A DNA stretch of 64,000 bases, from NCBI GenBank assembly GCA_021201655.1, contig JAJQEL010000074.1, positions 7,029-71,028 of the forward strand, in the 5' to 3' direction. The position numbers were made by a program, and so were the translations under genes. The DNA comes from Erysipelotrichaceae bacterium (lineage in GTDB: Bacteria; Bacillota_I; Bacilli_A; Erysipelotrichales; Coprobacillaceae). Below are positions 3,954-25,527 of this stretch, piece by piece. The notes beneath the pieces are model-generated. The model searched no databases. It worked only from the letters and a program-made list of their open reading frames with translations, and had not been told where the DNA came from. Numbering within the stretch: the stretch's first letter is position 1; the number at the start of each line of letters is the position of its first letter.

Positions 3954-3962
3954 ACGCTTCTC

Positions 3963-5754: not shown

Positions 5755-5778
5755 TTTCTCTTAATATTTCCTGATTTC
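5734..5778. repeat. 45-bp direct repeat, copy A (left boundary of inserted islet)
   Basis: tgccttacaacaaggcatcaatttctcttaatatttcctgatttc is identical to 8929-8973 by base-by-base comparison. Confidence 0.9.
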
Positions 5779-5846
5779 ATAATTAAATTAGCAATTGATA
5801 TCCAAAATATTTGATATAATATCATTAACGATTGGAAGTAAGAGAA

Positions 5847-6191: not shown

Positions 6192-6245
6192 CTTTTCAGC
6201 AACTAAAATATTATATTAAGGAAAACTGATTTTAATATCAGTATT

Positions 6246-8636: not shown

Positions 8637-8892
8637 CTGTTTATTACTCTCCTTAATTTAATTTCAATAAAATTCAAAATTTGTATAATTATATCATATA
8701 AAATATATATTTTCATCTCAATTTATCACCATTTTCCAATCTAATCTTTAATTGTTTCTTTCTATTTGCTTTTTTATTTTTAGTCAATTTTTTTATCTAA
8801 AGAGGAATAGTATTATTTTAAAAAACATTGTATTTTATTTTGAATTATAGTTCAACATTACAAACCTAGTTCAGAAGATTATACTATAACTC

Positions 8893-8923
8893 AAAAAGTC
8901 AGTATTGAGTAATCAATACTGAC
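8893..8923 (-). terminator. Intrinsic terminator now serving the AAA+ gene 8933-10399 (islet-encoded)
   Basis: Perfect 11-bp stem gtcagtattga/tcaatactgac with a 4-nt loop, followed by T5 on the minus strand. Confidence 0.7.
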
Positions 8924-8928
8924 CATTT

Positions 8929-8973
8929 TGCCTTACAACAAGGCATCAATTTCTCTTAATATTTCCTGATTTC
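8929..8973. repeat. 45-bp direct repeat, copy B (contains stop codon and last 12 codons of the AAA+ gene)
   Basis: Identical to 5734-5778. Encodes ...NQEILREIDALL* on the minus strand. Confidence 0.9.
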
Positions 8974-10399
8974 TTTCATAAAATAGTAAATCTTTATTAT
9001 ATTTAAAATATGATTCACTACCATATATGCTGATATATCTTGCACACACACTAGATGAAGTTAATTCAGTAATTACCAATAGTATTTCCTGTTCTCCAAG
9101 AGCTATTTCTAAAAAATGAAAGATGTTTTCTAATTGATTGGAAGTTTTATTAGAAAAGATTTGTAGTTGTTGAATTGAACGATTGATATATTCTTTACCT
9201 ACTTCAAAGTGTTTTGATGCGTCTATATCTTGGATAAGTGATAATATTTCTTCAAGATATTGTTTTAAAGAGGCATACGCATCTTGGTCATTTTCTGATA
9301 ATAGTTCACGTTGATTAGCAGATAAACTCATATTGATGTTATTGATTTTTTCTTCAATGGAATCCATAATAGATGATGATTGAATGATTTTCTTGGCTTC
9401 GACAATTGTCTGTCTTCTATCTAATACTTGTTTCATGTCTTGCTTTTCTTTATCTAATAACAAACCAATAAGACTAATCCTTTCATCAAACGAAGCCTTT
9501 TGAGCACGTTCAATGATATCTTTACTAACTTGTCCTGCCAAAATATCATCAACCTTATAATCACTTTGATATTTCTTCCATAATTCAAAATAAACAGAGA
9601 ATTGATGAGCAATCTTTTCATCTCTTAAATATTGCTTTATGAGTAATTCGTCGATTTCAATATGATTTAATTCATAGAGTTTCATCATAATAGATAAATC
9701 ACTCCATCCTCTTGGTGTCACAAAACTACGTCCATCGATCGTATTTTCTACTTTATAGAATTGATCATTTCTGATATCTAAATAACTTAAGATACATGGA
9801 TGAATATCTTCATTAATAGCCCAATTTTTCCAAACACTATAATCTGGTTCAATATCAATACGTTTTAAACGATCTTCAGTCACCATATCAAATTCTCTGA
9901 CCGATTGATTATATTGTGGCGGATTCCCTGCCGTAACAACTATCCAACCTTCTGGTATGCGATGCTGGCCAAATACTTTATATTGGAGAAATTGGAGCAT
10001 GGAAGGAGCTAAAGTTTCAGAAACACAATTGATCTCATCTAAAAATAAGATACCTTCTCTGATGCCAGTTTCTTTCATTTTGTGATAAATTGAAGCAATA
10101 ATTTCACTCATGGTATATTCACTAGCACGATATGTTTGTCCATCGAATTCTTCTTCTTGAATATAAGGTAAACCTAAAGCTGATTGTCTGGTATGATGCG
10201 TAATGGAATAACTCACTAGACCAATATGTAATTCTTGGGCTATTTGTTCAATAATAGCTGTTTTACCAATACCTGGTGCTCCTACTAAAAACAATGGTCT
10301 TTGTTTATGTAAGGGTATAAGATAACGTCCATATTCATTTTTCGTGCGATAAGCAATAATTGCATTTTTTATTTGATCTTTTGCTTCATTAATATTCAT
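8933..10399 (-). CDS. AAA_5 (MoxR/CbbQ-like) AAA+ ATPase with helical C-terminal domain, module 1
   Basis: Walker A GAPGIGKT, Walker B ILFLDEIN, sensor-1 region VTAGNP, then DRLKRI. 66 of the first 80 residues are identical to the paralog at 23209-24663 (manual count). Confidence 0.85.
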   Translation of the reverse strand: MNINEAKDQIKNAIIAYRTKNEYGRYLIPLHKQRPLFLVGAPGIGKTAIIEQIAQELHIGLVSYSITHHTRQSALGLPYIQEEEFDGQTYRASEYTMSEIIASIYHKMKETGIREGILFLDEINCVSETLAPSMLQFLQYKVFGQHRIPEGWIVVTAGNPPQYNQSVREFDMVTEDRLKRIDIEPDYSVWKNWAINEDIHPCILSYLDIRNDQFYKVENTIDGRSFVTPRGWSDLSIMMKLYELNHIEIDELLIKQYLRDEKIAHQFSVYFELWKKYQSDYKVDDILAGQVSKDIIERAQKASFDERISLIGLLLDKEKQDMKQVLDRRQTIVEAKKIIQSSSIMDSIEEKINNINMSLSANQRELLSENDQDAYASLKQYLEEILSLIQDIDASKHFEVGKEYINRSIQQLQIFSNKTSNQLENIFHFLEIALGEQEILLVITELTSSSVCARYISIYGSESYFKYNKDLLFYERNQEILREIDALL

Positions 10400-10408
10400 A
10401 CTTTCTCC

Positions 10409-10981
10409 TTATAATATTTCTAAATCTTCTTTTTCTACGACAATCTGTAATGCCCATGGTGGTATTTTCGCATAATAGGCACTTTCATAATTGATAAATA
10501 CAAACGCTGTTAAATAAGATGGAACACGCTTAGGATATATACCTAAACCATCTGTAAAATAAAGCATACCTTTTAATTGATGAAATACATTGTCTTGAAT
10601 TAATTCGTCAACATAATCAAAAGCTGGTCGAAAATCAGTACCACCAAATCCCTTTAAAGTAAGCTTTGATAAATAGATATCTAATTCTCTTTGATTGGTA
10701 ATAACTTCATCGTGTTTGATTTGACTATCACATTGAATCAAATGTAAATTAAATTGTTTATCAAATGCTTCTTGTTGTTTTAAGATATTCCATGTTTTTT
10801 GTAAAAATAATTGTACCATATCTCCTTGAACGGAACCTGATGTATCAATAACAATCACAAAATCACGAATCTTCTTATCTTCACGATATTCCAATGGTTC
10901 TATTAATGGTGTATCTTTATAAAGCTCCAAACCATAAGTATAATAAATATAATCAAATTCATCCAATGATGTATGCATCAC
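10409..10981 (-). CDS. VWA-domain protein (DUF2201-type), C-terminal half of a split gene, module 1
   Basis: MIDAS motif VIVIDTSGSV, then GGTDFRP. Collinear with residues approx. 280-469 of the fused paralog 21855-23240. Confidence 0.8.
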   Translation of the reverse strand: MMHTSLDEFDYIYYTYGLELYKDTPLIEPLEYREDKKIRDFVIVIDTSGSVQGDMVQLFLQKTWNILKQQEAFDKQFNLHLIQCDSQIKHDEVITNQRELDIYLSKLTLKGFGGTDFRPAFDYVDELIQDNVFHQLKGMLYFTDGLGIYPKRVPSYLTAFVFINYESAYYAKIPPWALQIVVEKEDLEIL

Positions 10982-11775
10982 TTCTGATCTGCTCGCAAAT
11001 TTTTTAAAAACTCACGATAATCCACATGTTCACGATGTAATTCTAATAAAGCTCTCGTCAAATCACCAGATCTTTCACCTTGTTGTTTAGAAAAAGTTTG
11101 AAGTTGACTATCCATATCTTCACTTATATGTTTCCATAATGCTTTTAAATTTTCTGGATTGCCTGATGCTCCTTCTGTTTCATCACTACTTTCATAAACT
11201 TGACCTTTGGATGCTTTTTTCTTAGCTTTAACAATGCCTTTTTGATAATCATCATTATACCATAATTGATGATTATCAAAATGAAACAATTGTTTCCATT
11301 CTCCTAGTAAATCAGGATGAATAGGATAATCCATTAAATAACGATATATTTTTTCGGCTGTATAGATTTTCACTTTTAATTTAGATAATTCCTGCTTACG
11401 CAGTGAATCCAAAGGATCATTTTGAATAATATTGAGATCAATAATCATCGCTTCACTCGCCATATCACAAGCTAAATCCCACATCTCCTGATTAATGGAA
11501 TGATCTACAAACATATGCATAAATAGACAATGCATCAAAGGATGTAAAAAGCATCTTAAAGCATAGTTTTGATCTTGTTGATAAGATTGTAATACTAACA
11601 TTGACTGATAATAAAGATATTTCCCATCAGTGGCGATATAATTAGATTGGTGACTTTGCAGTTGTAATTGCCATAAGGCTTTATCTAAAAATCTCAGATT
11701 TAAAAGTATTTGGGTTTTACCCATATTAAGTATTTTTAGCGCTAGTTTATTGATTTTATCTGTATTGTCTACCAT
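10978..11775 (-). CDS. DUF2201_N-like putative metallopeptidase-fold protein, N-terminal half of the split gene, module 1
   Basis: FLHPLMHCLFMH followed by WDLACDMASE. Collinear with the N-terminal half of the fused paralog. Its stop overlaps the start of the VWA ORF (GTGATG). Confidence 0.7.
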   Translation of the reverse strand: MVDNTDKINKLALKILNMGKTQILLNLRFLDKALWQLQLQSHQSNYIATDGKYLYYQSMLVLQSYQQDQNYALRCFLHPLMHCLFMHMFVDHSINQEMWDLACDMASEAMIIDLNIIQNDPLDSLRKQELSKLKVKIYTAEKIYRYLMDYPIHPDLLGEWKQLFHFDNHQLWYNDDYQKGIVKAKKKASKGQVYESSDETEGASGNPENLKALWKHISEDMDSQLQTFSKQQGERSGDLTRALLELHREHVDYREFLKNLRADQK

Positions 11776-13742
11776 GATAATAAATCATCCTCTTGATTGA
11801 ATTTTGATTGATATTCTAATAATATAGCTATATTTTCCTGATGAGCATGTTTAATTGATGCTTCTAATAATATAGAAACATCTTCCTTAGTTAAACGTTC
11901 TAAATAAGGAAAAGCTTTAAGCTTGCCTTCTTTAATCAGTTCAAAGTATAACACATCATCCATGATATCTATCATTTCATTGAGTTCTCTTATTCGATAA
12001 GATGAATTAAGGAGTTCTCCTAACTTATAATTATCATCTTTAGGATAAATATCCATAATATTTTTGCCATGAAAAGATAACTTAAGATGTTCTTGAGGGT
12101 TACCAATAATATAAAAGTTTCTTTGAATGAGCTGTTGTAATTTGGGCATTGACATAGAAATATTTAAGTAACGATTTTTCCAATGAATATAATCATCAGG
12201 ATCATATTTTTGATTGAGTTGTTTTAATTGTGGAAAACATGAATCTAGAAGTAGTGGCTGATATGATCTTAAGGTTTGGCTATCAATGAGTGCACTATGA
12301 GCTATGGAAACAAATTGTTCATTATTAAAGTTCATAGGATTATTGTGAGCATCTTTGAGATGATCATCCTGGATGATAAAATATTGATTGTCACATTGCC
12401 ACAAGAGTGTTGAAGCAATATTCCTTAAGGTGAGACAACCCATGGTTTCTTTATACCAGGGAATAAAACGGGTTGCTTTGCCACTTAAGTAATCTTCGTA
12501 GAGCTTTTGTTTATAGATTTCTTGAATAATACTTAATTGTTGGGTATTATTTTTTTCTTCTAAGGACATGGTTATTTGAATAAATAGGGCATTTTCCTGT
12601 TTACCACGCATCGAAGCATATTGGGCTAATAATTGATGAGACAGAGCATAAACAGCAGCTTCTTCGTTGTCATTTAATAATATCGCTTTATTCAATGTTT
12701 CCAAACATAACAGACCGTCACGATTATAGATATCATATTGTTGCCAATGAATAGATTCTTCAATGATATGATTGAGCTGTAAAACAGAAGCATATCTTAA
12801 ATAAGGTATAAGCCTACGAGGATAATGCATATCTAAGTTATCTAAGGCTATTTGTAGTGATTCTTTATCTAGTTGACTTGCGACTTCATCAGCTGCTGTG
12901 TCTTTTTTAAAATAAGGTGGCTGACTATCAAATACTGACCATTGTGATATATACTTATATAGTATAAATTTTAATGCTTCCACAGGAGCAACTTTATCTT
13001 TTTCACGATATAGGACTTCTTTAAAAGTTGTGATATTTTCCTGTTCCATGGTTTGACGTATTTGTGATTGTGAGGCAAAGCGATTGATGTAACGAAGTAG
13101 TTTTTTATCACGTTCATCAAATTGTTGATGAGTGAGTCCTTCTTCTACTTCTATATGATCGATAAGTTTCTTTTGCTTATGAGTTAATGGCATAGTACGA
13201 ATATAAGAAATATATTGTTGTAAAGTAATTGTATCTTTAATGAGATGTCTTTTTCGACACATGAGAAAGATATCAATGATGCTTTTGTTTTCGCATAGTT
13301 CATTGAGATATTGAGGTAGCATGTCTAATATATATTGTTGATATTGATCTTGTAATTGTTGAGAGTAGCGATTTTCATATTCAGGATGTAATATGTAACC
13401 ACATGCCAAAATACGTTTTTCTATTTCAGATTGGTTTTGAAAAGGACGATATGGAGTACATATGTATTGAATGGTATTGATTGGTGGTAAGATGCGCATC
13501 AGTGGTGATTGATAAGGAATGGATGATAGCCAAATGATTTGTACATTATTATGGATATGATCAAAAGCATAAGATGCTATTTTTTTAACATGAGAACCAA
13601 TTGTTATTTTAGATAAATTGAGGCAATGACTAAAGGCACCCTCCCCAATTTCTTCCACTGATTCACCAATCATAACTTCATCAATCGATAAGTCATGACG
13701 ATAAGTATATGGTTTGACGTTTTCATTTATTTCTAGTTTCAT
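11769..13742 (-). CDS. Cytoplasmic BspA-type LRR protein with DUF4132-like central region and ankyrin-like C-terminus, module 1
   Basis: LRR_5-like ESVEEIGEGAFSHCLNLSKITIGSHVKKIASYAF with no signal peptide. Residues approx. 380-600 look DUF4132-like (LLWQCDNQYFIIQDD...VSIAHSALI...CFPQLKQL). C-terminal motif ILLEASIKHAHQENIAILLEYQ. Confidence 0.7.
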   Translation of the reverse strand: MKLEINENVKPYTYRHDLSIDEVMIGESVEEIGEGAFSHCLNLSKITIGSHVKKIASYAFDHIHNNVQIIWLSSIPYQSPLMRILPPINTIQYICTPYRPFQNQSEIEKRILACGYILHPEYENRYSQQLQDQYQQYILDMLPQYLNELCENKSIIDIFLMCRKRHLIKDTITLQQYISYIRTMPLTHKQKKLIDHIEVEEGLTHQQFDERDKKLLRYINRFASQSQIRQTMEQENITTFKEVLYREKDKVAPVEALKFILYKYISQWSVFDSQPPYFKKDTAADEVASQLDKESLQIALDNLDMHYPRRLIPYLRYASVLQLNHIIEESIHWQQYDIYNRDGLLCLETLNKAILLNDNEEAAVYALSHQLLAQYASMRGKQENALFIQITMSLEEKNNTQQLSIIQEIYKQKLYEDYLSGKATRFIPWYKETMGCLTLRNIASTLLWQCDNQYFIIQDDHLKDAHNNPMNFNNEQFVSIAHSALIDSQTLRSYQPLLLDSCFPQLKQLNQKYDPDDYIHWKNRYLNISMSMPKLQQLIQRNFYIIGNPQEHLKLSFHGKNIMDIYPKDDNYKLGELLNSSYRIRELNEMIDIMDDVLYFELIKEGKLKAFPYLERLTKEDVSILLEASIKHAHQENIAILLEYQSKFNQEDDLLSW

Positions 13743-13780
13743 AATATTCTCCTAAACATTATTATATGACAAAGATTCTA

Positions 13781-13808
13781 AAAAATCACTTCCAAAAGGA
13801 AGTGATTT
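13781..13808 (-). terminator. Intrinsic terminator after the Mo-hydroxylase operon, approx. 40 nt before module 1
   Basis: 11-bp stem aaatcacttcc/ggaagtgattt with loop aaaa and a T-rich tail on the minus strand. Confidence 0.65.
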
Positions 13809-13810
13809 GA

Positions 13811-16210
13811 TTATAAAACTGGAATTTCTTCTTGTTCAATGCCACCAGCACGACATACTGCTTGATAAATAACATCTTTTGCCATGAATATCTTATATTC
13901 ATTACCACTCATAGGTGTGGCCTTTTCTAAAGCAATTTCACCTGCTTTTGTAGCAACTTCTGTGTTAATTTCTTTACCAATGAGATATTCTTCTACTTTC
14001 TCTAAAGTATAAGGAACGGGTGCAACGCCACCAAAAACAAGCTTACAATCCTTAATAACATTGTCTTCGACGACAAATCTTTCAGCTAAAGACACAATCG
14101 CAAAATCAATCGCATCTCTTACTCTTCGTTTATCATAATGTGTTCCAGTTGTTTTAGGCACAATGATTTCAGTAACGAGTTCTCCATTATGTAAAACATC
14201 CTGAACTGTTAAATGTGTTGTAAATAACTCTTTAGCAGAGATAGTACGCTGCGTTGTTTTAATAGAAGCATTCATCATGACTAGTACTGGTGTTAAATCA
14301 GATGCATTAACTGCATAACAAGCACAATGTAAGCAACGTTTAGCTTCTTCAACGGCTGTTTGTTGATCTAAAGATTGACGATCTTCATCTGCTAAAGTAC
14401 GCTCTTCTACTGGTTTTTCATAAAGTTTATTTTGTTTTGGATTTTCGACACCTTCCACATTGAAGTGTGTATATTTTTCTTTGAATTCTTCAAAGGCTGA
14501 AGTTCCACCTAAATCATGATTCATACTTCTAGCAGCATTTCTACCTGCACGAATCGCGCGAATAGCTAGGTTTGGACCTGTTACAGCATCGCCACCAGCA
14601 TAATAGCCATCTTGTTTTGTTTTGCCAGATTCAATATCAGCATCAATCAAACCACGATTTGTCTTTAATTGTTGTGATAATTTATCACCTAAGAAAGAGA
14701 CATCAACTTTTTGACCAGTTGCTAAAATAATGAAATCTGAATCCACAAGCATAGTATCTTCTTCATCATAAGTCGGATTAAAACGTCCTTCTTTATCTCT
14801 TACTGATAAGCAACGTTTGGCTTCTAAAGCTTTCACATGACCATTTTCATCAGAAACAATACGTCCTAAGCCCCAGCCATTATAAATTTCAACGCCTTCT
14901 TCTTCAGCCATTTGAATCTCTGATTCATCAGCAGGCATTTCCTGTCTTTGTTCAAGACAAACCAATTTGACTTTCTTAGCACCTAAACGTTTTGATGTTA
15001 AAGCAACATCCATGGCAACATTTCCACCACCACAAACCAATACTTCTTCACCAATGGCTTTTTGTAAATATGTATTGACTTCTTCAAGGAAGTTTAAACC
15101 AAATTGTGTTAAATTTTCACCATCTAAACCTAAGATAGGTTGTGACCAAGCACCAGTACCAAAATAAACAACATCATTATTAGCACGAATATCTTCAACA
15201 CTAATATCTTTACCAACCATTGTATTCATGACAAATTGGATACCCATATTATCTTTTAAAGCATTGCAGAATTCATCAACAATAGATTTAGGTAAACGAT
15301 AATGCGGAATACCATATTGTAAAACACCACCTGGTTTTTCATGGGCATCATAAACTGTAACATCATGGCCTGCTTGTCTTAAATAGAAAGCAGCTGTTAA
15401 ACCACCAGGACCAGCACCAATAATAGCAGCTTTTTTACCCGTTAATTTTTCTGGAGCTTTATAGAAGCGATCTTTATTTTCTAGGATATAATCTCCTAAA
15501 GTTCTTTCCACAGCAGGAATATTCACAGGATCACCATATGTATTTTGATTACAATCATCTGTACATAAATGTGGACAAATACGACTTGTCATCATTGGCA
15601 TTGGATTATATTTAAAGAATTCTTGAGCAGCAGCTTCAAAATCACCTTGACGAATATAATCCATATATTTGGCAATATTTGTTCCAGCAGGACAAGCAGC
15701 TTGACAAGATGCTGCACTCTTGGTAGACATACCACCAAAAATAGAATGATATCTATTTTCCCCTACAATGGCATAACAAGTATCGCCACCTTTACGACGA
15801 CAATTCAAACGTCCACCAACATCATTTGGATAACGATAATACCAGCATCGTACATCTTGACATAAGTTACCACCTATAGTAGCTGTAGTACGAATAATTG
15901 GAGATGCTACAGAATGAGCTGCTTCAGATACAGCAGTTGCATATTTTTGCACTGTTTCATCTTCAGCAATTGTTTTTAAAGTTGTTCCAGCACCAATATA
16001 TAAGTTATCATTATCTTCTTTAATATATTGGCTACCTTCAATATTTTTTAAACTAACAACAGCTTTTGGATAAGTTGTTAATAATCTATCTTTATAAGTT
16101 CCCAGCAAATCAGTTCCTCCAGCAATTGGATCAATTGTACCGTGACTTTCACGGATAATTTGACTAGCTTGTTCATAACTATCTGCTTTTATATGATCAA
16201 ATTTTTTCAT
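13811..16210 (-). CDS. Mo-hydroxylase FAD-binding subunit (XdhB/CoxM-like) interleaved with a GltD/NfnB-like Fe-S NAD(P)H flavoprotein module
   Basis: N-terminal part IAGGTDLL...TIGGNLC. Middle part CQAACPAG...GDFEAA...IIGAGPGGLTAA...GGDAVTG. C-terminal part CYAVNASDLTPVLV plus a CO_deh_flav_C-like tail. Start chosen at the ATG 8 nt after the AAGGAG SD (the ORF track starts 6 nt upstream). Confidence 0.8.
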   Translation of the reverse strand: MKKFDHIKADSYEQASQIIRESHGTIDPIAGGTDLLGTYKDRLLTTYPKAVVSLKNIEGSQYIKEDNDNLYIGAGTTLKTIAEDETVQKYATAVSEAAHSVASPIIRTTATIGGNLCQDVRCWYYRYPNDVGGRLNCRRKGGDTCYAIVGENRYHSIFGGMSTKSAASCQAACPAGTNIAKYMDYIRQGDFEAAAQEFFKYNPMPMMTSRICPHLCTDDCNQNTYGDPVNIPAVERTLGDYILENKDRFYKAPEKLTGKKAAIIGAGPGGLTAAFYLRQAGHDVTVYDAHEKPGGVLQYGIPHYRLPKSIVDEFCNALKDNMGIQFVMNTMVGKDISVEDIRANNDVVYFGTGAWSQPILGLDGENLTQFGLNFLEEVNTYLQKAIGEEVLVCGGGNVAMDVALTSKRLGAKKVKLVCLEQRQEMPADESEIQMAEEEGVEIYNGWGLGRIVSDENGHVKALEAKRCLSVRDKEGRFNPTYDEEDTMLVDSDFIILATGQKVDVSFLGDKLSQQLKTNRGLIDADIESGKTKQDGYYAGGDAVTGPNLAIRAIRAGRNAARSMNHDLGGTSAFEEFKEKYTHFNVEGVENPKQNKLYEKPVEERTLADEDRQSLDQQTAVEEAKRCLHCACYAVNASDLTPVLVMMNASIKTTQRTISAKELFTTHLTVQDVLHNGELVTEIIVPKTTGTHYDKRRVRDAIDFAIVSLAERFVVEDNVIKDCKLVFGGVAPVPYTLEKVEEYLIGKEINTEVATKAGEIALEKATPMSGNEYKIFMAKDVIYQAVCRAGGIEQEEIPVL

Positions 16211-16222
16211 CGTCATGTCTCC

Positions 16223-18526
16223 TTATTTAATTTTACCCATTGCTTTAAGAATCTTTTGAGGTGTACATGGATATTCTGTCATTTCCACACCAATAGCATT
16301 ACTTACAGCCATTAAAATAGAGGCAGGTGCTGGTGATGGAGAAATTTCACCAAAACCTAAAGCATGGAAAGATTCACTATCCCATTCACTTTCTAAGAAT
16401 ACAGTATCAAATTGAGGGAAATTATTAAATGTACGCCATTTATAATCAATCATATTACCATTCATAAAACGACCTAATTTTTTATCAAGAATCATTTCTT
16501 CAAATAAACCAGTATCACCACCAGCTGAACCAAATGAACCTTCAGCCTGCATACGTAAATTAATTGGATCAATGATTTGTCCGACATCAGAACCTTCAAT
16601 AGCTCTAATCAATTTGGCTTCGCCAGTTTCAAGATTGACACATACTTCTGATAAATATAAGGCAAAGTTTGGTTTATCAAAGTTTTGTACATAATTATAT
16701 TTTCCTTGAATCGTCATTTCTGGACCAGTTACTGCAATCCAAGGGATATGCATTTGTGGATCTTTCTTATGGATAACCATAAAATCTTCGGTATCCAAAT
16801 CTTCAACATTCGCATTGAATTTAACAGCTGCCATTTCTAACAATTGGCGACGAGCATCTTTTGCTGCATTAACGGCTGTTGTTCCCATTGTAATCGTACC
16901 ACGAGAACCAATCATACCAGCATCATAACCTGTACCATGCGTATCAGCATCAACCACTTGAACACCATCCAATGGACATTTCAATACTTCAGCTACCATC
17001 TTTTGTACAGCTAAACGCTGTCCGCCACCAGTCTCACCTATACAAATCACAACTGTCACATTACCTGTCGCATGAAGTTTCACAATACCTTCTGTTGGAT
17101 CTTCACCGATATCAGCATTACCATGAACACCAACACCAACACCAATCGCATAACGACCATCTTTACTCACCCAGGTAGGCTTTTCCCAGCCTTTCCATTT
17201 ATCTTTCCAACCAAATGCTTTTGCTGTTTCATCAAAAGCTTTACGATAATCAACAGAATGAACATCCCACCATATATTATCACGCCAGATATAACGATCT
17301 CCAGCTCGTACAAAGTTTTCTCTAAACACTTCTAATGGATCCATATTGGCTTCTCTAATGGCGGTACAAACCATAGGTACTAATACGGATTTACATTCCT
17401 GGCCACCAAAACCACGTATAGGAGCTTGAGATGAATGGTTTGTCGCTACTAATTTCGTATCCAATGCCCAGTTTTTACATTTTCCTAAGAAGGCCTGACA
17501 TTCTCCTAAACCAACAGCTGTCATCGCTTGTGCATAAGTAGAAGACATACCAGAGTCAGTATACCACATACCTTCGACAGCATTAATAATACCATCCTCA
17601 GTCATACCAATTTTACCACGAATACGACTACCTTGACGCAGTTCATAGCTTAACATATGTTCATTTCGACTCATCATAAATTTACAAGGACGACCAGTAA
17701 TCTTACTCATCAACACAGCTTGTAAAATCATATGGGGAATCAATTGCTTAGAGCCATAAGAATCACCAGCCTGCACAGCAATAACACGCACAGCCACACC
17801 TGGAATAGATGCTTCAGTATTAAACTTTTGAATATGTGGTGCCCCACCATCATACCAAACTGTCACAGCATGATTACTTGTCCATTCAGCGATACATCCA
17901 GGACTTTCAGGTGGTAATGGATGCGCCATATTATCATATTTCATATAGCTTTCTTTCACATATTTACTTTCTTTGAATCCCTTTTCTACATCACCAACAA
18001 AGATATCATTAAAAGGTACCTCTGAAAAAGGTGTCACCTTAACAATTTCATTATGCGGATATTCTTCATATAATTGAGGAGCCCCATCTTCTAACGCTTC
18101 TTCACAATCCAATACAAAAGGTAAAACTTCATATTCAACCTTAATTAAATCTAACGCCTCATCTGCAGCTTCTAATGTTTCAGCAGCCACCAAAGCTACA
18201 GAATCGCCTGTAAAACGCACATGTTGATCGAGTACACGACGATGTTGTGGTAAACCACATTTCCAATCAGGTGCATCCTTATAAGTTGCTACGCCAATAA
18301 CACCTGGAACATTTTTGGCATCTTCTACGTCAATACTAGTAATCATCGCATTTGGATAAGGTGATCTCAAAACACGAACAATCAACATATCAGGTTTATA
18401 AATATCATCAATAAATTGTCTCTTTCCACTTACTAACTCATCAGCTTCAGCTCGATTTGCATGTTTACCAATATAACGATATTCATGTTCACTAACCTTA
18501 ACTTGTTCTTTCATTTTATCATACAT
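16223..18526 (-). CDS. Molybdopterin-binding large subunit of a xanthine dehydrogenase/aldehyde oxidase-family hydroxylase
   Basis: Size and sequence match XdhA/CoxL-type subunits (GKRQFIDDI..., GGFGGQ-like RGFGGQE, GQRLAVQKM). Start placed at ATG 18526, after the GGAGG SD. Confidence 0.85.
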   Translation of the reverse strand: MYDKMKEQVKVSEHEYRYIGKHANRAEADELVSGKRQFIDDIYKPDMLIVRVLRSPYPNAMITSIDVEDAKNVPGVIGVATYKDAPDWKCGLPQHRRVLDQHVRFTGDSVALVAAETLEAADEALDLIKVEYEVLPFVLDCEEALEDGAPQLYEEYPHNEIVKVTPFSEVPFNDIFVGDVEKGFKESKYVKESYMKYDNMAHPLPPESPGCIAEWTSNHAVTVWYDGGAPHIQKFNTEASIPGVAVRVIAVQAGDSYGSKQLIPHMILQAVLMSKITGRPCKFMMSRNEHMLSYELRQGSRIRGKIGMTEDGIINAVEGMWYTDSGMSSTYAQAMTAVGLGECQAFLGKCKNWALDTKLVATNHSSQAPIRGFGGQECKSVLVPMVCTAIREANMDPLEVFRENFVRAGDRYIWRDNIWWDVHSVDYRKAFDETAKAFGWKDKWKGWEKPTWVSKDGRYAIGVGVGVHGNADIGEDPTEGIVKLHATGNVTVVICIGETGGGQRLAVQKMVAEVLKCPLDGVQVVDADTHGTGYDAGMIGSRGTITMGTTAVNAAKDARRQLLEMAAVKFNANVEDLDTEDFMVIHKKDPQMHIPWIAVTGPEMTIQGKYNYVQNFDKPNFALYLSEVCVNLETGEAKLIRAIEGSDVGQIIDPINLRMQAEGSFGSAGGDTGLFEEMILDKKLGRFMNGNMIDYKWRTFNNFPQFDTVFLESEWDSESFHALGFGEISPSPAPASILMAVSNAIGVEMTEYPCTPQKILKAMGKIK

Positions 18527-18527
18527 A

Positions 18528-19043
18528 TTATACAGCCTCCTCATTGATAGACTCAATAAACATCATAACTGTTCTTATAACCTGATAATGACTAATACAA
18601 CGACAATAGTTACCTGACAATGCTTCTGTTAATTCTGCTTCAGTTGGATTTGGATTTTTCATTAATAAAGCCTGAGTAGACATAATAATACCTGGTGTAC
18701 AGTAACCACATTGAAAAGCTGAATTATCCGCAAAAGCACGTTGCAGCGGACTTAATTCTCCCGTAATTGGATCAGCCAAACCTTCTAGCGTAATCACTGA
18801 CTTACCATCGCAATCAGCTGTTAAAACCATACATGAAGCAACGGGTTCACCATCTAGAATAACTGTACAACATCCACATGCTCCATGTTCACAGCTTCTT
18901 TTGGCAGCTGTTAAATGTAAATGATCACGTAAAGTATCCAATAAAACTTCAGAAGGTGAAATACATCCATCAAAATCGCCAATTAAAAATTTATGTAATT
19001 TACCATTCACTGTGATAGATATACTTTCGATTTGCTCACTCAT
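18528..19043 (-). CDS. [2Fe-2S] small subunit of the Mo hydroxylase (XdhC-Fe-S/CoxS-like)
   Basis: Two cluster motifs: CEHGACGCCTV and CGYCTPG...C-x-C. Confidence 0.9.
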   Translation of the reverse strand: MSEQIESISITVNGKLHKFLIGDFDGCISPSEVLLDTLRDHLHLTAAKRSCEHGACGCCTVILDGEPVASCMVLTADCDGKSVITLEGLADPITGELSPLQRAFADNSAFQCGYCTPGIIMSTQALLMKNPNPTEAELTEALSGNYCRCISHYQVIRTVMMFIESINEEAV

Positions 19044-19243
19044 AAATTTTTCCTCCTATTAACCATAATTTTTATTAGTTTAACATCTATTATATAAGTC
19101 AAAAAGTAGCATACTTCTCACTAGTTGTGTAGACTACATATTTTTTATAAAAAAATTTATATGATACATATACTTCATATGTAATTTAGACTACTATATT
19201 ATTTTTCATTATGCTTTAAAATGGTATAAAAGGAGTTTTTATC

Positions 19244-20125
19244 ATGAAGAGTGTAATTATATTAGAGTCTGATCATTTAGCTGCAGTTGCGATGGATATG
19301 TTGAATCCTAATGAAATGGAACTCATTGGGATTGGTAATTCATATAGTGATGAATGGAATGTTTTAGATGATGAAGGAAATATAACAGATGACTTTGAAG
19401 GTATTGCGATTATGCCTATAGATTTAGCAGTTGCACTGCAAAGTGATGTGATCGTGTTAGCTGCCCCAACCAAAGAAAAATGCGATGGTTTAAGATATAT
19501 GGCTATTCGTGCAGGTTATATGAATGATATTATTTTTATGAGTGATTTAACGACGCAGTTTTCTATTCAGAGTGCCTCTTTAAGAAGAATGGCTTATCGT
19601 TTGAATACTTTAAATATTGAAGGAAATATTGCCGAGTTAGGTTGTTTTAATGGTAATATGTCATGGCAATTGAATGCTTTATTTAAGGATCGTAAATTAT
19701 ATTTATATGATACTTTTGTGGGATTTGATGAAAGAGATATTGAAATCGAAGAAAAGAATCATTATTCTGATGCCAAATTAGGGCAATACGCACCTAAGAA
19801 TCCTGATGCGATTATGGAGCGTTTACCATATAAAGATAACGTAATCATCAAAAAAGGATGGTTCCCAATGAGTGCCCAAAATGAAGAGGACGAAAAGTTT
19901 GCATTTGTTTTTATGGATGCTTGTCTTTATCAACCAACATACAAGGGTTTAGAATTTTTCTTTCCCCGTATGAGTCGTGGTGGTATGATTCTTATTAACC
20001 ACTATGACAGTCCTATTTATCAAGGTGTTGAAGCAGCAATAAAGGATTTAGAAGCAAAATATGGTGTCTTTTTAATAGTTCCTTTAGGAGATTTTCAAGG
20101 TTCTATGATGATTGTTCATCCATAA
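19244..20125 (+). CDS. TylF/MycF-like class I SAM-dependent methyltransferase with approx. 100-aa N-terminal extension
   Basis: ELGCFNGNMS, LYLYDTFVGF and FVFMDACLYQPTYKGLEFFFPRMSRGGMILINHY resemble macrocin-O-methyltransferase family motifs. Confidence 0.65.
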   Translation: MKSVIILESDHLAAVAMDMLNPNEMELIGIGNSYSDEWNVLDDEGNITDDFEGIAIMPIDLAVALQSDVIVLAAPTKEKCDGLRYMAIRAGYMNDIIFMSDLTTQFSIQSASLRRMAYRLNTLNIEGNIAELGCFNGNMSWQLNALFKDRKLYLYDTFVGFDERDIEIEEKNHYSDAKLGQYAPKNPDAIMERLPYKDNVIIKKGWFPMSAQNEEDEKFAFVFMDACLYQPTYKGLEFFFPRMSRGGMILINHYDSPIYQGVEAAIKDLEAKYGVFLIVPLGDFQGSMMIVHP

Positions 20126-20175
20126 AAGCTATTTCTTTTTGTTGGAAAAAATGTATAATTAAGAAAGGAGAAACT

Positions 20176-20712
20176 ATGAACTTTTATAAAAATCATTATG
20201 GTATGATTATATCATCAGTAATAGCGATTGGTGTATCCATTGTTATGGCAACAGCTGCTTTTATTGTACAAGGTAATCCTATTGAATTACCTGATTTGAT
20301 AAAGAACTGGGGAACAGCTTTTTTAACTATTTCTTTAACTGGTATGATTTGTCCATTAACTGATTGGAGTTTTGCCTTATGTCGTAAACTCAAGCTTAAA
20401 GTTGAATCTTTACCTCATGTATTAGTAGAAAACACTGTAGCGACATTAGTATTTAATACAACAGCTACACTTGTTTTATCAGCTGTTAATATTTATGGTA
20501 ATGAAGCGATTGAAGCTGCTGTTGCAGCAGGGCAAATTCCTAGTGTGACTTCTGTTTTTATCGAAAGTGTTATCCATGATTGGCCAATCATGTTTGTGAT
20601 TTCATTTATTGCAGCCTTCTTTGTAACACAGCTTGCAGTACGCATCGCTAAACAAGCAGTTGGTGAATTGATAACACCAGAATCACCTCAATATCAAGAA
20701 CATGAAGAATAA
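20176..20712 (+). CDS. Small integral membrane protein, unknown function
   Basis: Four predicted hydrophobic helices. GGAG SD upstream. Confidence 0.5.
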   Translation: MNFYKNHYGMIISSVIAIGVSIVMATAAFIVQGNPIELPDLIKNWGTAFLTISLTGMICPLTDWSFALCRKLKLKVESLPHVLVENTVATLVFNTTATLVLSAVNIYGNEAIEAAVAAGQIPSVTSVFIESVIHDWPIMFVISFIAAFFVTQLAVRIAKQAVGELITPESPQYQEHEE

Positions 20713-20717
20713 AAAAC

Positions 20718-20748
20718 ATTCCCTAAGATTATCTTAGGGAATTTGTTT
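20718..20748 (+). terminator. Intrinsic terminator-like hairpin approx. 20 nt before module 2
   Basis: 10-bp stem attccctaag/cttagggaat with loop attat, followed by TTGTTT. Confidence 0.6.
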
Positions 20749-20761
20749 AAGGAGAACCAAT

Positions 20762-21853
20762 ATGGAAGAGACTTTAATTATTGAAAATACCGATATCATC
20801 CAGCGCCATGCTTATTTTCATACTAATATTAAACATCTAATCATTAAAAATGTTAAAATTATTGATGTCGAAGCATTTCATGGCTGTAACAAGCTAGAAA
20901 CTATAGAATTTCATGAAGGGCTTCAAGAAATTAGGAGTCGTGCTTTTTGGTATTGTTCATCCTTAAAAGAAGTTGTTTTTCCTAAAAGCATCCAGCTGAT
21001 TGGTTCTCGTGCTTTTGAATGTTGTAGCCATTTAGAAAAGATCAAGCTTTTATATCCAGGTACATTTATTGATGAATATGCCTTTAATGAAACACCTTAT
21101 TGGAATACATTATTGCATCAAGCCAGTCTTTGTACCTCTCAAAATAAAAGCGATTGTTATCCTGAACTTGTTTTACCTGAAGGAGCGATGCATGTTGATA
21201 TTTGGGCTTATAATAAAAGTGCCATTGAATATCTTTATTTACCAAATAGTTTACGTACGATAGGTAATTGTGCTTTTAAAGATTGTACTTATTTAAAAGA
21301 AATTTCCATGTCACCTAATAGCTATTGCAATACCAAAATGAAATTACATTATACGGATGGTATTTTTTCTGGATGCCAAAGTTTAGAAAAAGTAATTTTT
21401 CGTGGTCCACTTAAACCTCATGGAAAGTTTTTAGAAGGATTTGATGAAGAAAAGACATTTATGGGTTGTTATCAACTCAAACAAATGATTGGCTGGGACA
21501 TTCCTTTAGAACTATATCCTGGATCATGGAGAGGTTATGCGATTAATGGTTATTTAGAAGATATTGATAGAAATAGTCATTATAGCAAAAATGTTCAAGC
21601 ATCCTATGATGATTATCTAAAAAATCATTATGAAATGTATATTCAAAAAGCTTCACGTAATCAATCCTATGCTATTCATCAATACTTAACAAGTCATCAA
21701 CTGATCAATGAACGACATATTCAAGCTTTATTAGAAGTTGCTACAAAGCATCAAAACGCAGATATCATTGCCCTGCTATTAGAATATCAAAATACCTATC
21801 ATAAACATAATTCATTTAATGAACTCATAGATGCCTTTTTACAGGAGGACTAG
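20762..21853 (+). CDS. Cytoplasmic BspA-type LRR protein with ankyrin-like C-terminus, module 2
   Basis: LRR_5-like repeats IIDVEAFHGCNKLETIEFHEGLQEIRSRAFWYCSSLKEVVFPKSIQLIGSRAFECCSHLEKI with no signal peptide. C-terminal motif ALLEVATKHQNADIIALLLEYQ. Confidence 0.7.
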   Translation: MEETLIIENTDIIQRHAYFHTNIKHLIIKNVKIIDVEAFHGCNKLETIEFHEGLQEIRSRAFWYCSSLKEVVFPKSIQLIGSRAFECCSHLEKIKLLYPGTFIDEYAFNETPYWNTLLHQASLCTSQNKSDCYPELVLPEGAMHVDIWAYNKSAIEYLYLPNSLRTIGNCAFKDCTYLKEISMSPNSYCNTKMKLHYTDGIFSGCQSLEKVIFRGPLKPHGKFLEGFDEEKTFMGCYQLKQMIGWDIPLELYPGSWRGYAINGYLEDIDRNSHYSKNVQASYDDYLKNHYEMYIQKASRNQSYAIHQYLTSHQLINERHIQALLEVATKHQNADIIALLLEYQNTYHKHNSFNELIDAFLQED

Positions 21854-21854
21854 T

Positions 21855-23240
21855 ATGAACGGTGAGGAACTCGCTTTAGAAATTATCAATCTTTCTAGAA
21901 ATACCCTTATGATTCATTATCGTTTTTTAGATAAAGCCATTTATCAATTGGAACTATCTATGGATCCTACCACAACTTTGGCAACTGATGGTTTTTATTA
22001 TTATTATAATCCTGCTCATGTTTTAAAAGTCTATAGTATGTCTCAATCAAGACTGATTCATGATTATTATCATACTTTACTTCATTGCATCTTTCATCAT
22101 CCCTTTGTGGAGAATATTGATACATTGGTTTGGGATTTAGCCTGTGATATTGCGATTGAAGCATGCATCCAATCAATGAATGATGATTTAGTAAAAATAA
22201 AATTAGATGTCCATGCCCAAATGATCCTCAACGATTTACAAAAAGAACTCAAACAACTAAGTGCTGAAAAAATATATCGTTATTTTAAAAATCAACATTT
22301 AGATGATGAAACCTTACTCACTTATCGTGATTATTTTAAAGTCGATGAACATGAATGCTGGTATGAACATACCAAGCAAAATGATAATCAACAACAAAGT
22401 GATGATTTAGATAAAGAAAGTCAAAACAATCAAAATAGTCAATCATCATCAAATAATGATAATCAAGGTGATACGCCACAAAATCAGGAAGGTGAATCCA
22501 TCAAAAAGCAGTGGCAACAAATATCCCAAAGTATGCAAACAGATTTAGAAACCTTATCTAAAGATTACGCAACTAAGTCAGGGACATTATCATTACAATT
22601 AAGTATCACCAACCATACTAAAACAAGTTATCATGATTTTTTAAGTCAATTTATGGTATTCAATGAAGAAATAACGATTAATGATGAAGAATTTGATTAT
22701 ATATATTATACATATGGATTAAAACTCTATGAGAATATACCGCTTATAGAACCATTAGAATATAAAGAAGATAAAAAGATTCAAGATTTAGTTATTGCGA
22801 TTGACACATCAGCATCGGTCAAAGAAAAAGTCATTCAAAAGCTTATTAATGAAACTTATGATATTCTTCTTTCTAAAGAAAGCTTTTTTCATCATTTTAA
22901 TTTATATTTGATACAATGTGATAGTCAAATCCAGGATGTTACGGTTATTCATCAATATGAAGAATTAGAAAATTATCAACTTACTATGAAAGGTTTTGGT
23001 GGGACGGATTTTAGACCAGTTTTTGAGTATATTGAAAATTTACAAGCCAATCATGAGCTGACTCAATTAAAAGGATTGATTTACTTAACCGATGGTGAAG
23101 GTATATATCCGCAAAAACAACCACCATATAAAGTAGCTTTTCTCATGTTTGATCAAAATATAGAAGTACCTGTGTGGGCAATAAAAATGATATTAGAGGA
23201 GGACGATTATGAATATCCAAGAAGCGAAAGATCAAATTAA
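21855..23240 (+). CDS. DUF2201-type protein: metallopeptidase-like N-domain fused to VWA domain, module 2
   Basis: Start at ATG 21855, after the AGGAGGA SD. YYHTLLHCIFHH, WDLACDIAIE, MIDAS motif VIAIDTSASV, GGTDFRP. Confidence 0.8.
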   Translation: MNGEELALEIINLSRNTLMIHYRFLDKAIYQLELSMDPTTTLATDGFYYYYNPAHVLKVYSMSQSRLIHDYYHTLLHCIFHHPFVENIDTLVWDLACDIAIEACIQSMNDDLVKIKLDVHAQMILNDLQKELKQLSAEKIYRYFKNQHLDDETLLTYRDYFKVDEHECWYEHTKQNDNQQQSDDLDKESQNNQNSQSSSNNDNQGDTPQNQEGESIKKQWQQISQSMQTDLETLSKDYATKSGTLSLQLSITNHTKTSYHDFLSQFMVFNEEITINDEEFDYIYYTYGLKLYENIPLIEPLEYKEDKKIQDLVIAIDTSASVKEKVIQKLINETYDILLSKESFFHHFNLYLIQCDSQIQDVTVIHQYEELENYQLTMKGFGGTDFRPVFEYIENLQANHELTQLKGLIYLTDGEGIYPQKQPPYKVAFLMFDQNIEVPVWAIKMILEEDDYEYPRSERSN

Positions 23241-24663
23241 ACAAGCCATGATAGCTTATTTTTCTAAGGATGAATACGGACAATATATGATTCCTTTGCA
23301 TAAACAAAGACCAATATTTCTCATTGGTGCTCCTGGTATTGGTAAAACAGCCATTATGGAACAAATTGCCCAGGAATTAAATGTTGGTTTAGTAAGCTAT
23401 TCTATGACTCATCATACCAGACAATCAGCTTTAGGTTTACCTTATATTGTTGAAAAGAATTATCAGGATGTTTCTTATCAGGTATCAGAGTATACGATGT
23501 CAGAGATTATTTCATCTATTTATGATTATATGAAAAATACCAATCATCAAGAAGGCATCTTATTTTTAGATGAAATTAATTGTGTATCAGAAACCTTAGC
23601 TCCTTCCATGTTACAGTTTTTACAATATAAGATTTTTGGTAGACACCAAGTTCCTGAAGGATGGATTGTGGTAACTGCAGGAAATCCTCCAGAATATAAT
23701 AAGTCAGTTAAGGAATTTGATATTGTGACGATGGATAGATTGAAATGCATCCATGTAGAACCTGATTATCAAGTATGGAAACAATACGCCCTGTCGCACA
23801 ATATGCATCCTGCTGTTTTATCTTATTTAGATAGTAAAAAGGATTATTTTTATAGAGTTGAAACAAGTGTTGAAGGAAAGATTTTTGTCACGGCTAGAGG
23901 CTGGGAAGATTTATCGACGATGATGAAACTTTATGAACAGAATGATTTACCTATTAATATTGATTTGATCATTCAATATTTACAACATCCTAAAATTGCC
24001 AGAGATTTTGCCTCTTATTATGATTTATTTATGAAATATCAATCACAATATGATATTGTAGATATTTTACAAGGAAATGTTGATGATAAAATCAAACAAC
24101 AAGCCACGCATGCACGTTTTGATGAACGTTTAGCATTACTTAGCTTATTGATTGATCATGTAACATCACAAATGAAAGATATTCAAATCAAACAAAATGC
24201 CTTATTGAAGATTATGGAACAACTCAAAAAAGATCACTCATCTGAATCTTTACAGCAATATCTTAATCAAAACAACGATTTAATGGCTACACATAAAAAA
24301 TATCACAACTTAGCATCGCAGGAAATAAGTGAAATATCTATGATTAATACATTTTTTAGTGAACATCTTCATGATGATTGTCCAACGACAAAACAGGCAT
24401 TTGGATTACAAGTCAATACTATCAAAACACAAATCGCTGATATGCAAAACCAATTAGAAAATTTATTTAATTTTGTCGAAGAAGTATTTCAAGATGGTCA
24501 AGAATTACTTATATTAGTTACTGAATTAACACTCAATCCTTATTCAGCATCTTTTATATCACAAAATGGTTGTCCTCAATATTTCAAACATAATAAGGAA
24601 TTACTATTCTATGAAAGAAACAAAGAAATTATTACAAAATTAGAAGAATTAAACGATAACTAA
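23209..24663 (+). CDS. AAA_5 (MoxR/CbbQ-like) AAA+ ATPase, module 2
   Basis: GAPGIGKT, ILFLDEIN, VTAGNP. GAGGAGGA SD upstream. Overlaps the end of the VWA gene by 32 nt. Confidence 0.85.
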   Translation: MNIQEAKDQIKQAMIAYFSKDEYGQYMIPLHKQRPIFLIGAPGIGKTAIMEQIAQELNVGLVSYSMTHHTRQSALGLPYIVEKNYQDVSYQVSEYTMSEIISSIYDYMKNTNHQEGILFLDEINCVSETLAPSMLQFLQYKIFGRHQVPEGWIVVTAGNPPEYNKSVKEFDIVTMDRLKCIHVEPDYQVWKQYALSHNMHPAVLSYLDSKKDYFYRVETSVEGKIFVTARGWEDLSTMMKLYEQNDLPINIDLIIQYLQHPKIARDFASYYDLFMKYQSQYDIVDILQGNVDDKIKQQATHARFDERLALLSLLIDHVTSQMKDIQIKQNALLKIMEQLKKDHSSESLQQYLNQNNDLMATHKKYHNLASQEISEISMINTFFSEHLHDDCPTTKQAFGLQVNTIKTQIADMQNQLENLFNFVEEVFQDGQELLILVTELTLNPYSASFISQNGCPQYFKHNKELLFYERNKEIITKLEELNDN

Positions 24664-24666
24664 AAA

Positions 24667-24690
24667 CCATTTATCAAAACTGATAAATGG
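24667..24690. terminator. Bidirectional intrinsic terminator between the convergent AAA+ and nitroreductase genes
   Basis: ccatttatca/tgataaatgg stem with loop aaac. Flanked by an A-run on the left and CTTTTT on the right. Confidence 0.65.
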
Positions 24691-25363: not shown

Positions 25364-25527
25364 AGTTATAAACCTCCTCTTTTTCTATAAATATTTATGA
25401 TTTTCCAAAAAGTAACTTGATAATCATATCACCGAATGGTATTATTATCATACCATGTATGAAAAGTGTATACAAGTACGCAGAAAAATCATACATAGTA
25501 TGAATGACCATACTAGGAGGACTATTA

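Follow-up and report, generated by a model that had tools for sequence, protein, structure and literature searches.

We analysed a 64,000-nt stretch of DNA from an Erysipelotrichaceae bacterium (GenBank assembly GCA_021201655.1, contig JAJQEL010000074.1, positions 7,029 to 71,028 of the forward strand), the whole of which is referred to below as the window. It carries two copies of a three-gene cassette encoding an AAA+ ATPase (A), a VWA-domain protein (V) and a leucine-rich repeat (LRR) protein (L). The left module occupies positions 8933-13742 on the reverse strand and the right module positions 20762-24663 on the forward strand; their products are marked _L and _R, respectively. Between them lie a molybdenum (Mo) hydroxylase operon of the xanthine dehydrogenase (XDH) family, a TylF-like methyltransferase gene and a gene for a 178-aa protein (Table 1). 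The point of interest is the cassette itself, not its position in the window.

A first-pass annotation, made from the sequence alone, had described these open reading frames (ORFs), their strands and a two-arm layout, and all were found as described. Its assignments of AAA_5, DUF2201_N plus DUF2201/VWA and LRR_5 domains were upheld by Pfam profile search. Within each module the genes overlap or abut, again as claimed: L_L and V_L overlap by 7 nt, V_L and A_L are separated by 9 nt, L_R and V_R by 1 nt, and V_R and A_R overlap by 32 nt. Four hairpins with terminator-like T tails are present, including one at 13743-13810. This hairpin stands after the FAD-subunit gene of the hydroxylase operon and has TATAAT and AGGAG behind it, so that a promoter of its own is probable for the left module.

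For comparison with other genomes, ORFs were called in every locus and labelled by iterated hidden Markov models (HMMs) built from the window proteins with HMMER-made alignments. Cassette composition was assessed in 54 well-flanked loci and linkage to XDH-type genes in ~75 loci besides the window; the DNA examined around loci amounted to ~1.4 Mb. The species scan used one genome per species. Pfam cutoffs were 22 bits for AAA_5 and 27 bits for both DUF4132 and bpMoxR, and defence models were taken from PADLOC-DB 2.0.0.

Table 1. Features of the two modules and of the DNA around them (positions in the window)
Feature	Position	Strand	Evidence or remark
A_L, AAA_5/MoxR-like ATPase, 488 aa, predicted helical C-terminal tail of ~300 residues	8933..10399	-	Pfam AAA 32.9 bits, AAA_5 32.1 bits
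V_L, C-terminal part, DUF2201 VWA domain, MIDAS motif DTSGS	10409..10981	-	Pfam DUF2201 49.6 bits; colinear with C-terminal half of V_R
V_L, N-terminal part, DUF2201_N zincin-like domain, HPLMH without catalytic Glu	10978..11775	-	Pfam DUF2201_N 38 bits; translation
V_L, frame-change site	10997..11010	-	T5A6T3 run, A_AAA_AAT, -1
L_L, cytoplasmic, 657 aa, N-terminal LRR_5, DUF4132-like region, C-terminal handle	11769..13742	-	Pfam LRR_5 40.1 bits
L_R, cytoplasmic BspA-type LRR_5 protein, 363 aa, handle at residues 315-345	20762..21853	+	Pfam LRR_5 110 bits
V_R, fused pseudo-zincin (HTLLHC..H, D98, E102) and VWA/MIDAS (DTSAS), 461 aa	21855..23240	+	Pfam DUF2201 59 bits, DUF2201_N 35.5 bits
A_R, AAA_5/MoxR-like ATPase, 484 aa	23209..24663	+	Pfam AAA_5 37.8 bits
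Terminator-like hairpin closing left module	8897..8924	-	12-bp stem then TTTTTGAGTT, directly after A_L stop codon
Intergenic region between hydroxylase operon and left module	13743..13810	-	-17.5 kcal/mol, 11-bp stem and T run, then TATAAT and AGGAG
Promoter-like site upstream of left module	13839-13810		
Hairpin between 178-aa protein gene and right module	20718..20742	+	11-bp stem then TTGTTT
Terminator-like hairpin closing right module	24667..24690	+	10-bp stem then CTTTTTATTA
XDH-family Mo-hydroxylase operon (2Fe-2S, Mo subunit, FAD subunit with GltD-like insertion)	13811..19043	-	Pfam, NCBIfam; neighbour, outside cassette
TylF-like methyltransferase	19244-20125	+	Pfam TylF 48 bits; cassette membership uncertain
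178-aa protein	20176-20712	+	Cassette membership uncertain

Properties of the A, V and L proteins

The two ATPases are 53% identical over their full length, and homologues from other bacterial families share 54-59% identity with each, so that these are as close to it as its partner or closer. These identities rule out a recent local duplication of the modules, whether tandem or inverted. The Walker A (GAPGIGKT) and Walker B (LFLDE) motifs are invariant among 14 sequences, as are N159 and R177, candidates for the sensor-1 residue and the arginine finger, respectively. Both proteins score above the gathering score of AAA_5 (37.8 bits for A_R and 32.1 for A_L, against 22), and both fall below that of bpMoxR (24.3 and 21.8 against 27 bits). 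A_R is 100% identical to a protein named MoxR family ATPase at NCBI, from an Erysipelotrichaceae metagenome-assembled genome, and A_L matches phrog_1297 (E 5e-41). The A family comprises more than 8000 related clusters at 90% identity, with homologues at 56-61% identity; the size of at least 8000 candidates obtained for each of the A and V families is a lower bound.

The C-terminal ~300 residues of A are predicted to be helical. An AlphaFold model based on the 14-sequence alignment had a confidence score (pLDDT) of 74 with a poorly resolved core, and Foldseek returned only generic AAA+ proteins at a TM score of ~0.2. No MoxR-family chain was present among the best 60 of 62 sequence matches of A to the PDB at E ≤ 0.1. 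In PADLOC, A matched IetA, TRIP13 and PDC-S73 only over ~30-60 N-terminal residues including the P-loop (E 1e-3 to 7e-6). The 5' ends of both AAA genes constitute an inverted repeat of 232 bp with 80% identity (10169-10400 and 23208-23439). An independently assembled contig, L173, terminates exactly at both repeat copies, where assemblers break.

V_L and V_R are 39% identical, and their alignment crosses the split in V_L without a gap. Both DUF2201_N and DUF2201 exceed their gathering scores in V_R and in the halves of V_L, and homologues were recovered at 40-50% identity. The model of V consists of an N-terminal domain with pLDDT ~90, a disordered acidic/polar linker and a VWA domain which, as modelled, matches integrin I-domains and the metal ion-dependent adhesion site (MIDAS) domain of MDN1; among the structure matches listed for the model, none was informative on the fold of the N-terminal domain. 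Sequence searches of V and L against the PDB yielded no informative relatives. V_R matches phrog_1314 (E 4e-35). For VWA_CoxE (PF05762), V gave no match at E ≤ 0.01, while E. coli YehP scanned in the same way scored 243 bits.

The MIDAS motif DxSxS is retained in 74 of 77 V proteins, as DTSAS in V_R and DTSGS in V_L, and the motifs GGTDF and TDG are invariant. The N-terminal domain bears a zincin-like motif, HxxxHC..H, with an invariant D and E downstream. In 62 of 63 clade members, I, M, V, T, S, L or A stands in place of the catalytic glutamate of HExxH; the window motifs, HTLLH in V_R and HPLMH in V_L, both depart from HExxH. Distant homologues on the Synechocystis plasmid pSYSA and in Aeromonas phage 2L372X retain HELxH. 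Because the glutamate is lost almost throughout the clade and kept in these phage and plasmid homologues, we infer that the V clade descends from a widespread pair of an AAA protein and a peptidase-VWA protein (phrog_1297 and phrog_1314), and that the peptidase chemistry has been lost.

The left V gene is split, as the first-pass annotation had reported, by a -1 frame change at 10997-11010. Addition of one A to the T5A6T3 run restores an intact V_L of 455 aa reading ...EFLKKFASRSEVMH..., and the restored junction, FLKKFASRSE, agrees with the family consensus. All other V homologues examined are single fused ORFs. Contig L173, which differs from the window at 1 position in 13,271 bases (99.99% identical), has an identical split and A6 run, so the split is probably real. 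V_L may be a pseudogene, may be made as two polypeptides, or may be produced by -1 frameshifting at A_AAA_AAT. This heptamer is of the X_XXY_YYZ type, which could support -1 ribosomal frameshifting.

Between the LRR proteins of the two modules, similarity is limited to the LRR_5 repeats at the N-terminus and a motif of ~30 residues at the C-terminus. The first-pass description of the modules as paralogous thus holds for A and V and fails for L_L and L_R over their full length. In L_L the LRR_5 match (40.1 bits) covers residues 9-73 only, and a DUF4132 match at residues 397-509 is below the cutoff (24.1 against 27 bits). An in-house HMM of the C-terminal part of L_L matches residues 981-1102 of E. 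coli YehI (E 1e-8), within its Pfam DUF4132 domain at 954-1138. L_R contains no DUF4132 and is 47% identical to the LRR protein of locus L049. Judged from sequence, neither protein has a signal-peptide-like N-terminus, in line with the first-pass annotation.

Cassette-linked L proteins range from 100 to 1290 aa. Pfam scanning of 86 of them identified LRR_5 in 78, DUF4132 in 9, Ank in 6 and BRCT in 5, and no enzymatic domain matched more than one member. An ankyrin-like motif of 30 residues, here termed the handle (consensus IPAEDIDELLEEASENGATELTALLLEYKNRN), was detected in 87 of 133 L proteins and in one protein outside the L set across all loci. In the window it occupies residues 618-648 of L_L and 315-345 of L_R. 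Many L proteins have the handle within ~45 residues of the C-terminus, and many others have it at an internal position.

Distribution, gene turnover and genomic surroundings

The V-L-A cassette is carried by more than 521 species genomes (a lower bound), mainly of Clostridia, Erysipelotrichaceae and Coriobacteriia. The best 80 carriers are Oscillospiraceae, Lachnospiraceae, Acutalibacteraceae and other Clostridia, together with Coriobacteriia such as Eggerthella, Paraeggerthella, Slackia and Adlercreutzia. The triad as a whole is conserved: V lies on the same strand as A in 50 of the 54 well-flanked loci and upstream of it in 49, and at least one L gene is found within 9 kb in 49 loci, with 0-9 copies per locus and a mode of 1. 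When the unlabelled neighbours were clustered, no fourth conserved component emerged: no family occurred in more than ~15 of ~85 loci, and those of the larger clusters that were inspected consisted of MatE-type transporters or of antisense-ORF artefacts. Some exceptionally long V or A proteins from Coriobacteriia and one Lachnospiraceae genome were considered as fusions, contained no extra Pfam domains and are probably over-extended ORF calls or expanded linkers.

Pairwise comparison of loci showed sequence conservation to decrease in the order A, V, L. Identities were 84% for A, 73% for V and 54% for the best-matching L in one pair, 73%, 62% and 34% in another, and 100%, 98% and 69% between L007 and L008. 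In this pattern the motor is conserved, the adaptor varies more, and the LRR proteins evolve fast and differ in copy number. In the last pair, both members of which are metagenomic contigs, the LRR arrays between and around V and A differ (L007, 4740-12442; L008, 263-12473), with one gene in one contig and three in the other, and the downstream genes also differ. This suggests deletion or recombination among LRR genes at the strain level.

The first-pass annotation knew of no characterised unit of LRR_5, DUF2201 and AAA_5 genes, and indeed no PADLOC or NCBIfam model corresponds to one. Nor did the searchable literature, covered by titles, abstract openings and term searches and only thinly for subscription journals (e.g., surveys of MoxR subfamilies), contain a description of the cassette. 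Four papers that mention DUF2201 and four that mention DUF4132 deal, by title and abstract opening, with other subjects.

The 130 genes immediately flanking cassettes matched 153 Pfam families, none of them in more than 4 loci, and include housekeeping genes (tRNA synthetases, SmpB, Lgt and UvrC). MoCoBD occurred once among them. An XDH-type Mo subunit was encoded within 10 kb in 2 of the ~75 other loci, L052 and L029. With identities of only 28% and 24%, respectively, to the Mo subunit of the window, these are different, non-orthologous enzymes. In L029 the operon is divergent and one gene away from the cassette. In L052 (Candidatus Scatomorpha gallistercoris, 2532-15303) it ends 15 nt before V of a V-L-A cassette on the same strand. 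Locus L044 has an FAD-subunit-like gene only, the 856-aa neighbour there being without a Pfam match. Two XDH operons in ~1.4 Mb, or ~1 per 0.7 Mb, is about what roughly random placement in Clostridial genomes would give, the background rate being an estimate. The Mo subunit of the window was best matched in NCBIfam by XdhA models (330 bits, below cutoff), with CO dehydrogenase models scoring lower. Given the rarity and non-orthology of XDH neighbours, a V protein that is not of the CoxE type, an XdhA-like Mo subunit and a terminator ahead of the left module, the mirror-image placement of the modules around the hydroxylase looks incidental, and the tie between the two that headed the first-pass annotation was not sustained.

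PADLOC analysis of the same 130 flanking genes revealed scattered defence-type neighbours only; some loci adjoin transposases, recombinases, SbcCD or WYL genes. In collections of mobile elements, close homologues were confined to 7 short fragments of faecal viromes and to 2 of the 2.9 million IMG/VR contigs, and plasmid collections contained no close homologue of the cassette proteins. On this near-absence from phage, virome and plasmid collections, we rejected a phage- or plasmid-borne cassette.

Relation to known systems and possible roles

Adjacent genes of the phrog_1297 and phrog_1314 families in phages and plasmids, exemplified by gp051/gp050 of Aeromonas phage 2L372X and by a pair on Synechocystis pSYSA, share homology with A and V along most of the sequence (E 1e-47 and 4e-35 against the PHROG profiles), and their V-type protein has the same two domains. 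They differ from the cassette in gene order (A then V), in the length of the ATPase (~340-380 aa) and in the absence of an LRR gene annotated beside the pair in the two examples examined; identity is only 21-29%. They also carry the canonical HELxH motif, so that their peptidase is presumably active. On pSYSA, a plasmid with CRISPR loci, the pair with HELxH (L092, 4932-7210) is situated among toxin-antitoxin genes and beside a DUF262 gene. The phage protein gp050 (L091, 5160-6629) and phrog_1314 are annotated as HNH endonuclease. However, gp050 bears both HELxH and DxSxS, and phrog_1314 matches V near full length; by these motifs and matches, the name is probably an annotation error.

In CbbQ-CbbO, NorQ-NorD, RavA-ViaA and Rea1/midasin, a VWA/MIDAS adaptor joins an AAA+ ring to its substrate. 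The cassette resembles the MoxR/VWA pairs (RavA-ViaA, CbbQ-CbbO, NorQ-NorD and CoxD-CoxE) in placing an AAA_5-type ATPase beside a VWA protein with an intact MIDAS and in having translationally coupled or overlapping genes, and the logic of motor and MIDAS adaptor is likely the same. Unlike in these pairs, V belongs to the DUF2201 family with an N-terminal zincin-like domain, and A has ~490 aa with a helical tail of ~300 residues and no sequence match to a solved MoxR structure. The cassette further differs by a third, variable LRR component and by the lack of a fixed client operon. Rea1/midasin offers a mechanistic analogue: its VWA/MIDAS domain, linked to an AAA+ motor, binds otherwise different substrates by a small domain that is conserved among them, and the fold matches of V include the MIDAS domain of MDN1. 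Rea1, however, is a eukaryotic ribosome-assembly factor with the MIDAS inside the motor polypeptide, and no homology is claimed beyond the VWA fold.

The vWA-MoxR-VMAP ternary conflict systems (Kaur et al. 2020, PMC7159879) likewise pair a MoxR-like ATPase with a vWA protein and add a third protein that varies, and A weakly matches bpMoxR. In contrast to them, the cassette contains no VMAP, effector or effector-associated domains, its bpMoxR score remains under the cutoff (24.3 against 27 bits), and its third component is an LRR_5, DUF4132 or Ank protein. Their hosts are multicellular actinobacteria and cyanobacteria, whereas the cassette is found in unicellular gut anaerobes. In a term search of that survey, DUF4132 and YehL were absent, and LRR appeared once, in the reference list.

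By analogy with the MoxR-VWA pairs and midasin, we favour a reading in which the cassette is an ATP-driven remodeller of the MoxR/VWA type, with exchangeable LRR proteins serving to recognise its targets, and in which its placement in the window is incidental; we give this reading about an even chance. A would act as an ATP-driven ring motor, as in the MoxR-VWA pairs. V would be the adaptor joining this motor to L, with either the MIDAS or the pseudo-peptidase groove binding the handle. The L proteins would be exchangeable recognition subunits, capturing on their LRR surfaces those proteins that are then remodelled, stripped or sequestered. Fast turnover of L would suit fast-evolving targets, for instance proteins of phages or other mobile elements. 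Among the first-pass proposals, an NTPase module with LRR or ankyrin recognition subunits fits best, given the conservation gradient A > V > L and the variable L arrays; the conflict role attached to that proposal was not borne out. Diversification of L points to variable targets, and a role in genetic conflict is possible, although the lack of an effector, of a defence-island signal and of a PADLOC match gives defence modest weight.

Several observations weigh against this remodeller reading. No L gene lies nearby in 5 of the 54 loci, no fusion of L to V or A turned up, and contacts of V with L and with A are putative. The term MoxR-like rests on the AAA_5 profile and the VWA partner, while bpMoxR stays below threshold and the A model is poor (pLDDT 74), recovering generic AAA+ folds only. 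A common C-terminal motif on otherwise variable proteins would fit clients or cargo as well as receptors. As to a conflict role, defence genes are not enriched beside the cassette, no effector domain was detected, and neither V nor L has a match in PADLOC.

The handle is also the starting point of the main rival, which we consider unlikely. According to it, the L proteins are clients or cargo, V and A form a dedicated chaperone or targeting machine for BspA-type LRR proteins, and the handle is a sorting signal. The position of the handle within ~45 residues of the C-terminus in many L proteins, its near-exclusive occurrence in L and the tight linkage of L genes to V-A would all agree with this. 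BspA-type LRR proteins are usually found at the cell surface, and the maturation of particular client complexes is the main task of the MoxR systems characterised so far, which counts in its favour as well. However, the L proteins lack signal peptides, the motif is internal in many of them, and no conserved membrane channel or secretion component accompanies the cassette, a homologue of the 178-aa protein being present in one other locus only. Divergence of clients faster than that of their chaperone and copy numbers of 0-9 are also hard to explain under it. A strict abortive-infection or anti-phage system with an unrecognised effector, for example the helical C-terminal tail of A, appears quite unlikely. 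Its support comes from the resemblance of variable LRR arrays and the conservation gradient to sensor diversification, from a GmrSD enzyme beside the left module and the transposases, recombinases, SbcCD or WYL genes adjoining some loci, and from the distant A-V pair among toxin-antitoxin genes and a DUF262 gene on pSYSA. Against this stand the few defence matches and many housekeeping genes among the 130 flanking genes, the absence of an effector-like domain in L, the inactivated peptidase domain, and a motor that is 50-60% identical across phyla, which is unusual for defence genes.

Two further first-pass proposals compare the cassette with named gene clusters. The E. coli yehI/yehLMPQ cluster also has genes for a DUF4132 protein, for an AAA_5 ATPase and for a VWA protein, and homology links the C-terminal part of L_L to the DUF4132 region of YehI, but DUF4132 is only weakly common to the two, being found in 9 of 86 L proteins and absent from most. 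YehP is a VWA_CoxE protein without a zincin-like domain, and YehM (DUF5682) and YehQ (SWIM) have no counterpart, none of these families occurring in the module proteins. HMMs of A and V match neither YehL nor YehP beyond the P-loop, and a Pfam scan gave no LRR_5 in YehI and no DUF2201_N in YehP. That the cassette is a Firmicute version of this cluster with the same function is therefore improbable; for the yeh cluster itself, no paper on function was found in the titles and abstract openings searched. Maturation or repair of the adjacent Mo-hydroxylase by CoxD/CoxE-like modules is very improbable. CoxD and CoxE do mature a Mo enzyme, the modules adjoin the hydroxylase operon in the window, and the operons of L052 and L029 lie 15 nt and one gene away, respectively, from their cassettes. 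Yet no conserved linkage to Mo operons emerged, with two non-orthologous Mo subunits (24-28% identical to that of the window) among ~75 loci and a single MoCoBD in 130 flanks. V belongs to DUF2201 and contains no VWA_CoxE, and the neighbouring enzyme is XdhA-like, not a Cu-Mo CO dehydrogenase. Moreover, the left module is set behind a terminator with its own -10 element and ribosome-binding site, and the right one behind unrelated genes.

Returning to the remodeller with exchangeable LRR subunits, we offer an extended form of it tentatively, as a doubtful but conceivable possibility. The cassette would then be a widespread, unrecognised cytoplasmic protein-targeting system of gut anaerobes, in which exchangeable, handle-bearing LRR receptors connect, by way of a pseudo-peptidase/VWA adaptor, to a MoxR-like motor, and this motor disassembles or sequesters proteins of invaders such as phages. 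This would amount to an effector-less, LRR-based innate immunity that evolved from an active peptidase-VWA/AAA pair also present in phages.

The cassette is abundant in human and animal gut microbiota, and no paper addressing it was found in the titles and abstract openings searched. It adds a new architecture to the MoxR-VWA theme, with a dead zincin domain fused to the VWA adaptor and a fast-turnover array of cytoplasmic LRR proteins with a common handle. If the L proteins are receptors, bacterial LRR-based target recognition would be coupled to an AAA+ remodeller, and part of the large unexplained BspA-type LRR_5 expansion in gut Firmicutes would acquire a function. Recognising the Mo-hydroxylase adjacency as incidental also avoids a misleading annotation as maturation factors.

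Neighbouring genes in the window

The operon between the modules encodes 2Fe-2S, Mo and FAD subunits and has the TylF-like methyltransferase gene beside it, as the first-pass annotation had it. A TylF-like gene was found near the cassette in L052 only, 3 kb downstream; this locus combines, in another bacterial family, the three elements that the window has, possibly by chance. The 178-aa protein had no Pfam match, and its hydrophobic stretches fit the earlier description as a membrane protein; its homologue was found directly upstream of L-V-A in L049 only.

The left module is adjoined by a gene for a GmrSD-type (DUF262/DUF1524) type IV restriction enzyme of 796 aa (6246-8636, -), which matches PADLOC Orf5 (E 6e-148) and has no homologue in any other cassette locus examined. 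To the right of the right module, at 24698-25875, genes for a TM1586-type nitroreductase (-) and an HxlR-family regulator (+) are arranged divergently, and the nitroreductase gene and the right module use one common terminator hairpin.

The hydroxylase FAD subunit (13811-16216, -) is unusual in that it contains a GltD-like module (Fer4_20 and Pyr_redox_2, residues ~169-570) inserted between its FAD_binding_5 N-terminal part and its CO_deh_flav_C end. This domain arrangement suggests direct coupling to NAD(P)H. A relative of this subunit, with 674 aa and 34% identity, is encoded in L029.

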